From: Verrucomicrobiia bacterium
GTDB taxonomy: Bacteria > Verrucomicrobiota > Verrucomicrobiia > Chthoniobacterales > UBA6821
Direction: 5' to 3'
Length of the DNA: 59,649 nt
Assembly: GCA_026398175.1 (NCBI GenBank)
Contig: JAPLTJ010000144.1
Coordinates: forward strand, 1 to 59,649
Part shown: one piece after another, positions 56,599-57,432 of the stretch
Position numbering within the stretch: position 1 is the stretch's first letter
Layout of the letters: each line of letters starts with the position of its first letter
Position numbers and translations under genes: made by a program
The notes under the pieces: model-generated
Databases searched by the model: none
Told to the model about the DNA's origin: nothing
Seen by the model: only the letters and a program-made list of their open reading frames with translations

Positions 56599-56853
56599 AT
56601 GCTCTACGAGTGGGATGATGAAAAAAATGAAAAACTAAAACGAGAGAGATGTATTTCTTTTGAGGAGATTGAATGGGCTCCTGACAATCAGCCCCTTTTA
56701 GGAAAAGCATTTAATCCACGTCGCCCGAAACAAATTATTCTTCTCGTCACAATCGATCAATATGTTTGGGCTGTCGCAACAGAACAACGTGGCACAAAAA
56801 TTCGTCTTATCACAGCATATCAAAGTCGCAAATTTACAAAAAAATATTTATGA
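56599..56853 (+). CDS. brnT: BrnT-family (DUF497) toxin
   Basis: YEWDDEKNEKLKRERCISFEEI and IRLITAYQSRK match the BrnT pattern (feWD..K...N..kHgvsFeEa ... iRiIsAR.a). Confidence 0.6.
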   Translation: MLYEWDDEKNEKLKRERCISFEEIEWAPDNQPLLGKAFNPRRPKQIILLVTIDQYVWAVATEQRGTKIRLITAYQSRKFTKKYL

Positions 56854-57432
56854 GAACTGCTGATTTTCCTTTTGATTTTGAATTAGAGTATTTTCACTAA
56901 AGTTGTAGCCGCGCATTGCGGCGTCACTCCGGTGCTCGCGTCCTCGAGTATTAGATATACACTGCGGGTCTGCGGTTGAACTCGCTCGCTCCCGCTCGGC
57001 TCGCCCCTGTGGGGCTGCCTCCGGCAGTCCATCCAGCGGCCTCCCGGCCCGCTGTATTCTCGTTCCTGGCACTGCATCGGCTACAACTTCATTTAAAACG
57101 CTCTAGATCCTTACGAGCAAGCGTTGGAAGACGAATTGGAGCGTCTCGACGCCGCTGGACTCCTCGTTGTTAGAGAATTAACTCCTGAAGAACGATCGAT
57201 GTATCATCAAGCATCTATTAACACAAGTAAAGCTCTCAGCGAAGGAAAACGTTGGATGGTGGAACGTCGCAGCAAATATGCTGATGCCTCTGAGGAGCTG
57301 ATGTCATGGCTCTCTCCTGCCGCACAAGAAAAATTGAAGCAAGAACTGAAAAAGAGAAAATCTGCAACTCAAGAAAAAACATCTTCTTTTTCAACTACGA
57401 GCGGGGCCAAGCTCGCTCTACGCCCCGCGTAA
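56850..57432 (+). pseudogene. putative cognate antitoxin gene split by repeat D2
   Basis: ATG 56850 overlaps the brnT stop (ATGA). 11 codons, then the 223-bp element 56883-57105. Deleting exactly that segment restores a 119-codon ORF ending at 57432. Confidence 0.55.
56883..57105 (+). mobile_element. family D, copy D2 (long form, 223 bp, with GC-rich internal module)
   Basis: TTAGAGTATTTT...AAAACGCTCTA ends; core GCATTGCGGCGTCACTCCGGTGCTCGCGTCCTCGAGTA as in D1; extra GC-rich module 56978-57055. Confidence 0.85.

Follow-up and report, generated by a model that had tools for sequence, protein, structure and literature searches.

The window analysed here, a stretch of 59,649 nt (assembly GCA_026398175.1, contig JAPLTJ010000144.1) from an uncultured freshwater lineage of the Chthoniobacterales (Verrucomicrobiota), carries a putative toxin-antitoxin locus whose second gene has been split by a small transposable element. 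The first gene, brnT (56599..56853, + strand), is an intact 84-codon open reading frame (ORF) that Pfam and its orthologues place in the BrnT family (PF04365/DUF497) of toxin-like proteins; a weak sigma-70-like promoter candidate (TTGAAA, 18-nt spacer, TATCCT; 56564..56593, + strand) was picked out 5' of it by a consensus scan. Its stop codon overlaps, as ATGA, the start codon of the partner gene, a putative antitoxin, of which codons 1-12 (MRTADFPFDFEL; homologues read MRTADFPFDFELDPYEQ) stand to the left of the insertion (56850..56885, + strand). The last two of these bases, 56884..56885, are the left TA of a target-site duplication; there follow a non-coding miniature inverted-repeat transposable element (MITE) of 218 bp, GAG...CTC (56886..57103), and the right TA (57104..57105). 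We refer to this element as D2, a member of the D family, and it is recognised by its repeats, its folding, comparison of its copies and its sequencing depth. Codons 13-120 and the stop codon of the partner then continue as a fully open frame (57106..57432, + strand), as both the ORF and the alignment show. Convergent with the pair and sharing 15 bp with the 3' end of the partner gene lies ligA (57418..59463, - strand), assigned to the NAD-dependent DNA ligase LigA from its ORF and from the Pfam domains of its orthologue in the related locus L012. The ligase gene served as synteny anchor, the same arrangement being found in L007, L008, L009, L012 and L035.

Much of this layout had been recognised in the original prediction. 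The 84-aa BrnT-like ORF is present as claimed, and the partner's ATG at 56850, overlapping the brnT stop, does open MRTADFPFDFE; upon entering the element the frame runs through LEYFH to a stop at 56898-56900, giving a 16-aa peptide. A second frame is indeed open from 57097 to 57432, but its start does not coincide with the edge of the element, as had been proposed: a TAA at 57094-57096 precedes it, and it begins 9 nt into the right inverted repeat. A family-D element does split the partner, although the ends first assigned to it (56883-57105, TTAGAG, 223 bp) include a base, T56883, that belongs to the flank.

The true boundaries follow from the copies of the element, the reading frame and the empty sites. 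In the window and three Chthoniobacterales metagenome-assembled genomes (MAGs), ten complete copies all begin TAGAG(C) and finish (G)CTCTA, and the bases flanking them show no duplication past TA. With its TA ends, D2 thus occupies 56884-57105 (222 bp), for a net insertion of 220 bp. The partner frame stays broken when all 222 bp are removed, while removal of 220 bp (the element and one TA) yields a 120-codon ORF reading ...DFPFDFE-L-DPYEQALE..., in which Leu12 fills an invariant column among uninterrupted homologues (...FELDPYEQ). Excision of 223 bp also restores a frame, as originally stated, but the 119-codon ancestor so obtained has lost this invariant leucine; the restoration is a coincidence that costs a conserved residue, and we have dropped it in favour of the 220-bp excision. 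Finally, the exact predicted empty site, GATTTTGAATTAGATCC, exists in nature: it is found in L008 (83-89% identical) and L012 (88-96%) in the same ligA synteny, where the filled GAAT-TA-GAG...CTC-TA-GATCC corresponds to an empty GAAT-TA-GATCC (GAATTAGATCC). Because the ends of the ten copies, the empty sites and the restoration of frame agree, we place the duplicated TA within the ancestral Leu12 codon, TTA. A 4-bp TAGA duplication was considered and ruled out, as the inverted repeats align only when GAG is counted as element. TA is likewise duplicated around a D-family insertion in the brnT gene of L035 (CTAC-TA-...-TA-AAAC) and around an unrelated MITE in L012. The insertion, its boundaries and its TA duplication are real and not products of chance.

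Nor is the filled allele an artefact of assembly, which is ruled out by contigs that pass from flank to element in independent runs of several studies. An independent JGI contig (L006, 99.3% identical) begins inside the element and continues into the 3' fragment and ligA; in runs X1, X5 and X6, from three studies, contigs pass into the element from both unique flanks, and in run X10, from a fourth, from the left flank. Altogether the filled allele is seen in freshwater metagenomes of five studies. No contig joins 56883 to 57106, contigs being prone to drop rare variants, and two metagenome scans returned no empty-site allele of the window's lineage, the known filled contig being the only one found.

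D2 has the anatomy of a MITE. At 58% GC it stands out from the window (45.5%), and its terminal inverted repeats (56884-56911 and 57078-57105, TA included) are 28 bp long and imperfect, matching at 21 of 28 positions. As a single strand it is predicted to fold at -90.6 kcal/mol (z = -4.9 relative to shuffled controls). It holds chance ORFs only, and an Rfam scan of 56500-57500 at E <= 1 gave no match to any described RNA, riboswitch or intron. The common form of the family is about 140 bp, and D2 is longer by an internal module of about 82 bp (56975..57056), delimited by BLAST and absent from the short form, the joint 56974->57057 of the short form being deeply covered in all DNA runs. This GC-rich module (AACTCGCTCGCTCCCGC...GGGGCTGCC...) also occurs alone or within other repeats, at window positions 49872-49933 and in L018, L019, L025 and L029; because it is found outside D2, the repeat families of this genome appear to be mosaic or nested.

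The family is both abundant and narrowly distributed. Two full copies lie in the window (the other, of 140 bp, at 5490-5629) together with two fragments (41167-41226 and 49872-49933), and 14 D loci were located across three MAGs. A search for a 21-nt core among 185,579 species, one genome each, returned three Chthoniobacterales MAGs and two likely chance matches in GC-rich genomes. In metagenome contigs, words from the element reach depths of 60-550x where the unique flanks have 4-8x, a ratio (~10-100 times) that is an upper bound on copy number, since the element also occurs in relatives present in those samples. In the copy survey D2 is the only copy within the coding body of a gene, the others being intergenic or placed exactly at gene ends. 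At several of the latter the element's terminal TAG/TAA is itself the stop codon of a gene: that of the window ORF 4662-5492 (copy 5490-5629), those of both convergent genes flanking L018 2008-2227, and that at L022 6212-6429. Such insertions would be harmless because TA plus the element's first base, G, regenerates TAG, and this may explain where D copies survive.

Bacterial MITEs that duplicate TA, such as the Correia elements of Neisseria and the pneumococcal RUP, are moved by transposases of the IS630/Tc1-mariner type. The D family resembles these in its length (140-220 bp), the absence of an ORF, inverted repeats of about 28 bp, a strong predicted hairpin, TA duplication (here by empty sites), high copy number within one clade, and length variants built of nested modules. 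It differs from them in having no Rfam match and no cognate transposase in the sampled loci, and in termini, (TA)GAG, that regenerate a TAG stop, with several copies sitting on gene stops. Neither the window nor 38 loci contain an inverted-repeat pair around an ORF of transposase size; one candidate autonomous element was rejected, as it encloses a RecN-like gene, and repeat pairs at 1.3-2.9 kb spacing are chance matches. On the strength of its size, repeats, non-coding content, multiple copies and TA duplication, D is classed as a non-autonomous MITE with an IS630/Tc1-mariner-like mechanism. It would represent an undescribed TA-targeting family in freshwater Chthoniobacterales, with termini that regenerate TAG and copies tolerated on stop codons.

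Turning to the genes, the window protein belongs to the BrnT family by profile test: it scores 36.7 bits against Pfam BrnT_toxin PF04365 (gathering score 34.5) and covers profile positions 1-75 of 77. Its orthologues, at 60-87% identity, carry precomputed PF04365 matches; an exact-protein look-up of the window protein itself returned no record. The published BrnT fold is RelE-like, with a four-stranded antiparallel sheet on two short helices (PMC5086665). The topology predicted here agrees with that description, the AlphaFold2 (AF2) model (pLDDT 82.8, pTM 0.70) having a beta-alpha-alpha-beta4 order with helices at residues 7-17 and 21-30 followed by four long strands. Foldseek with this model gave no match at E <= 0.001, the toxins RelE, ParE and HigB appearing only weakly (TM 0.45-0.5). 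The single sequence had no match in the PDB, and the BrnT profile had one, 7vd7 (E = 0.027).

Whether this protein is catalytically competent is uncertain. In Brucella BrnT, Asp6, Glu7, Lys9, Arg41 and Glu78 are reported to matter for RNase activity or toxicity (PMC5086665), and for the K-H-G motif we counted the Lys-His of Aave_1720 as needed for activity. Our comparison covers positions 6, 7 and 9 and K-H-G, the equivalents of Arg41 and Glu78 aligning unreliably. Asp6 and Lys9 are invariant across the clade, and position 7 is Asp in the window and Asp, Glu, Lys or Pro in the clade. By alignment with 7vd7 the K-H-G motif falls on residues 16-18, which read E-R-G in the clade and E-R-C in the window; it is this clade-wide substitution that leaves competence in doubt.

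The partner belongs to a small and restricted family. Its uninterrupted homologues are 104-121 aa long, and the family as a whole comprises ten clusters among 5.8 billion proteins and nine representatives among 1.84 billion; a deep profile search of those 1.84 billion representatives added only same-family fragments and two relatives, P0012 and P0013, similar in the N-terminal part alone, and connected the partner to no known family. In at least four independent contigs (L001, L002/L003, L008 and L010) an intact partner lies directly behind an 84-aa BrnT gene with a 4-bp overlap. The partial contigs L007, L009 and L011 agree with this linkage, and the ATGA overlap is found in L012 and survives in L004. 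Homologues thus do stand beside BrnT_toxin genes elsewhere, and relatives free of the element have one continuous gene where the window has two short ORFs. The search for uninterrupted alleles that the original prediction called for has turned up intact alleles as well as empty sites, and its central claim, that the antitoxin of a BrnTA-like pair has been interrupted, gains support from these BrnT-linked homologues, though not in the sense of a BrnA-type partner.

Indeed, the profile search of the reconstructed partner that had been proposed in order to find BrnA/DUF4415-type families returned no match. Against Pfam, the reconstruction and five homologues matched no BrnA (PF14384) or ribbon-helix-helix antitoxin family at E <= 10; the same held for the reconstruction against NCBIfam, again at E <= 10, and in the PDB the partner profile found nothing above chance level. 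Neither Pfam nor NCBIfam thus assigns the partner to any described family. The AF2 model (pLDDT 71.5, pTM 0.31) is all-helical (residues 14-28, 39-70, 73-80 and 83-102) and has no N-terminal strand; a ribbon-helix-helix is not apparent in this moderate-confidence model, and Foldseek found no match to it in the PDB. A suspected resemblance to CopG-type BrnA ('LDxEEQELL...') was borne out by no test and was dropped. By these comparisons the partner is not BrnA, nor is it of the DUF4415/CopG type.

What recommends the partner as an antitoxin is therefore not homology; we take it as such because it is small, follows the toxin gene through a conserved ATGA overlap and complements the toxin in charge. 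Residues 1-37 have a pI of 4.05 and include the invariant LDPYEQALEDELERLD motif, the invariant acidic motif as a whole spanning residues 5-27; residues 38-120 have a pI of 9.85, and that of BrnT is 9.3. The two genes are small, adjacent, co-oriented and coupled, with linkage kept across genomes, as type II modules in general are. P0012 and P0013 (107 and 111 aa) share with the partner only its acidic N-terminal half (F.FKLDPYEQE.ED...L.AAGL...LTP..RKE) and differ in their C-termini. Because these two keep that half alone, the comparison suggests that it is the N-terminal module that is conserved as the functional unit. We regard the protein as representing an undescribed family of partners for BrnT-type toxins.

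Compared with the BrnT-BrnA system (2012, PMC3320955; PMC5086665, PMC10714953), the locus shares a PF04365 toxin-like gene whose product is small (84 aa), basic and predicted to be beta-alpha-alpha-beta4; it shares, too, a two-gene organisation with a tightly coupled small partner, and the conserved Asp6 and Lys9. It departs from that system in a partner that has no PF14384 or ribbon-helix-helix match, is predicted to be all-helical and lacks any PDB or Foldseek match, in the clade's E-R-G for K-H-G, in the interruption of the partner, and in that toxicity and neutralisation are here predictions.

Possibly the clade's pair never was, or has ceased to be, a toxin-antitoxin system: its BrnT-like protein, with a diverged catalytic motif, would then have no growth-inhibitory effect, and loss of the partner would be without cost. 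The E-R-G triplet, the variability of position 7 and the failure of the partner to match any antitoxin family or fold all speak for this, as does the fact, described below, that either gene may be lost first, depending on the lineage. We nevertheless regard it as unlikely. BrnT scores above the Pfam gathering threshold and retains, invariant, the Asp6 and Lys9 reported to matter for RNase activity (PMC5086665); purifying selection acted on both genes through most of the history of the clade (omega, the ratio of nonsynonymous to synonymous rates, 0.1-0.25); and the ATGA coupling is strictly conserved, an acidic partner with a basic toxin being typical of type II pairs.

Comparison of the same locus among close relatives reveals five states. 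The pair is intact in L001, L002/L003, L008 and L010. In the window lineage the partner is split by D2 and the brnT ORF is intact. In a sister lineage (L012-L017) the brnT ORF is also intact and the D2 site is empty; here, too, the partner is split, by an unrelated MITE of 162 bp at codon 37, 75 bp downstream of the D2 site, again with TA duplicated, and removing 164 bp restores a 119-codon partner ORF. This lineage keeps an ATG-started 76-aa 3' ORF along with a coupled 37-aa N-terminal ORF that contains the whole acidic motif. The window lacks any copy of this second MITE (L012 6363-6524, also in L013, L014 and L016; about 162 bp, inverted repeats TAGTCAAATTACTTAG); a further copy, at about position 7150 of L033, is nested in a D copy, within the latter's right inverted repeat. 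In the fourth state (L004 1183-1532, L005 981-1330) the toxin is gone and the partner, of 104 aa, is intact: all that is left of brnT is its last 12 codons and the ATGA overlap, and because the sequence upstream is unrelated we attribute the loss to deletion or rearrangement. In the fifth, L035, a D-family MITE interrupts brnT itself at a TA in codon 13, the brnT start codon is missing, and the partner carries a nonsense mutation, TGG>TGA, that is shared by L036-L038. The module is thus dispensable in the clade, where it is being lost repeatedly by different routes, mostly MITE insertion.

A paralogous antitoxin encoded at another locus might still neutralise an active toxin in trans, or the toxin might be kept silent. 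Bacteria often carry several toxin-antitoxin loci, and L012 has a VapBC-like pair just past its LigA gene. Even so, neither gene has a paralogue in the window, the partner family is very narrow, all matches whose context was examined come from the same syntenic locus with no second copy in evidence, and cross-neutralisation between unrelated antitoxin families is unusual; we find this explanation very unlikely.

Over the long term the locus has been strongly constrained. BrnT has pairwise omega values of 0.10-0.25, and between the window and L012 (synonymous divergence 0.50) omega is 0.09 for the partner and 0.089 for LigA. On the terminal branches the partner shows synonymous to nonsynonymous ratios of 8:1 (window) and 7.5:1.5 (L012), so that the insertions either came late in comparison with the lineage split or left fragments that still matter. 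The window BrnT has one private change at an otherwise invariant column, G18C (TGT at 56650-56652), which aligns to the G of K-H-G in 7vd7, and a lineage-specific L28P (CCT at 56680-56682) that puts a proline into predicted helix 2. Terminal-branch changes in BrnT are radical where the partner is disrupted (G18C and L28P in the window, Y3C and W57R in the L012 lineage), and those in L008, where it is intact, are mainly conservative exchanges of Ile and Val. Two haplotypes of the filled allele differ in BrnT by two nonsynonymous changes (R42H, Y83H) and no synonymous one, in the partner 3' fragment by two nonsynonymous (S43A, S53R) and one synonymous, and in LigA by none and two, respectively. 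The post-insertion total for the two genes is four nonsynonymous to one synonymous, closer to the roughly 3.8:1 expected under neutrality than to the ratio the locus had before, with a historical omega of 0.09-0.2 (p = 0.07-0.15 relative to the locus's own history, 0.02 relative to LigA), which is suggestive of both genes having drifted neutrally since the insertion. The window BrnT is probably attenuated, and because of G18C, the radical changes in disrupted lineages and the post-insertion changes we favour recent decay with an attenuated toxin.

The same data can be asked whether the split antitoxin still works, that is, whether the 3' fragment, restarted at TTG 57124 (Leu19; 102 aa) or ATG 57199 (Met44; 77 aa) and transcribed by read-through from brnT or from a promoter in the element, neutralises an active BrnT. 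The 3' frame is fully open and free of secondary lesions, with the 8:1 ratio on its terminal branch; the sister lineage likewise retains its two partner ORFs; brnT itself is retained; and a gene caller has annotated the 102-aa TTG form in the independent JGI contig (P0001/L006). On the other hand, a scan for promoters and terminators found nothing inside the element, nor any promoter-like site there facing the 3' fragment, the only such sites lying 5' of brnT and at 57178 (two, versus 1.5 expected by chance). Neither restart codon has a clear Shine-Dalgarno sequence 5' of it, a feature that the brnT start shares. Some or all of the invariant acidic motif is missing from the fragment, which also contains both amino-acid differences between the haplotypes, the window carrying the derived states; the locus, moreover, is dispensable in other lineages. 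We therefore judge continued function improbable, and the split partner is most likely null. Of the ways out that were first offered for a toxin left without its partner, an inactive or attenuated toxin is mildly favoured, and expression of the 3' fragment finds no positive support.

Taken together, these observations are probably best explained by a dispensable chromosomal toxin-antitoxin module in decay, its partner nullified by a MITE and its toxin weak or attenuated. The ancestral state would have been a BrnT-family gene and an ATGA-coupled, 120-codon partner beside ligA, the partner having an acidic N-terminal third and a basic remainder. A high-copy, non-autonomous MITE would then have inserted by an IS630/Tc1-mariner-like mechanism at the TA of the Leu12 codon, TTA, cutting the invariant acidic motif (DFPFDFEL|DPYEQALEDELERLD) and leaving behind a peptide of 16 aa and a 3' fragment devoid of a start codon, the gene being most likely null. 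The cell would tolerate the loss, the module being dispensable and the toxin weak or already attenuated (G18C in a conserved glycine turn, L28P in helix 2). Both genes would have drifted after the insertion, the window capturing one stage in the decay of a toxin-antitoxin module with MITEs as the main mutagen. The insertion with its ends and duplicated TA, the intact and empty alleles, the association with BrnT, the copy number and clade restriction of the element and the five states of the locus are observed directly; the antitoxin function of the partner, the attenuation of the toxin and the loss of function of the partner are the parts of this account that we infer.

Several points weigh against it. 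The excised partner ORF is perfectly open and, over nearly the whole window-L012 divergence, as constrained as LigA, and the brnT ORF is intact in both lineages in which the partner is split. Nonsynonymous to synonymous ratios on the BrnT terminal branches are no different where the partner is disrupted (4:5 and 5:5) from where it is intact (5:7), and the case for neutral drift rests on five substitutions. The whole clade has Arg in place of the family's His in K-H-G, and the toxicity of any BrnT in the clade is predicted from family membership. As to transcripts, the metatranscriptomes of one sample associated with a DNA run, too small at 33-61 million letters, hold nothing from the locus.

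That chromosomal toxin-antitoxin loci decay through insertion of IS elements or MITEs, deletion and nonsense mutation is well known. They can also be dispensable (PMC7280312). The present locus is like other degenerate loci in its several routes of loss, in the occurrence of an orphan partner and in the pseudogenisation elsewhere of toxin and partner together. It is unlike them in that the presumed antitoxin has been hit first in two lineages while the toxin ORF stays open, which for an active toxin is the less expected order. One may ask whether two different MITEs striking the same 360-bp partner independently in sister lineages are a sign of selection for removing or re-wiring the antitoxin instead of passive decay. 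We think this very unlikely; if true, the BrnT-like protein might have been domesticated for a non-toxic role, or alternatively a MITE-controlled split antitoxin, made of a coupled N-terminal peptide and a separately expressed C-terminal fragment, might have altered the regulation of the module.

Two observations concern the neighbourhood. Beyond ligA, L012 9407-12255 contains the VapBC-like pair, whose genes encode 84 aa and, with a PIN domain, 148 aa, as well as genes for type III secretion (HrpJ/TyeA, FliMN_C), a context that is unusual for freshwater Chthoniobacterales and hints at a host-associated lifestyle. On the other side of the locus, window 55036-56543 (- strand) encodes Memo-like (305 aa) and AMMECR1-like (197 aa) proteins in separate ORFs with a 4-bp overlap, which in L012 form one fused 500-aa gene; what separates the two arrangements is a 4-nt indel in a poly-A run at the junction, near 55626-55629.

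What we describe is probably an ordinary, if well-documented, case of gene decay, and it does not overturn current understanding; slightly unusual is that the presumed antitoxin was hit first in two lineages while the toxin ORF persists. For annotation, the 16-aa and 102-aa ORFs are to be read as fragments of one gene. The partner family, if confirmed, would be a further case of toxins swapping antitoxin partners, and the relatives offer a natural set of variants for testing BrnT toxicity. With one syntenic locus seen in five states across close relatives, this clade would provide a resolved natural example of the death of a chromosomal toxin-antitoxin module, with small transposable elements doing most of the damage.

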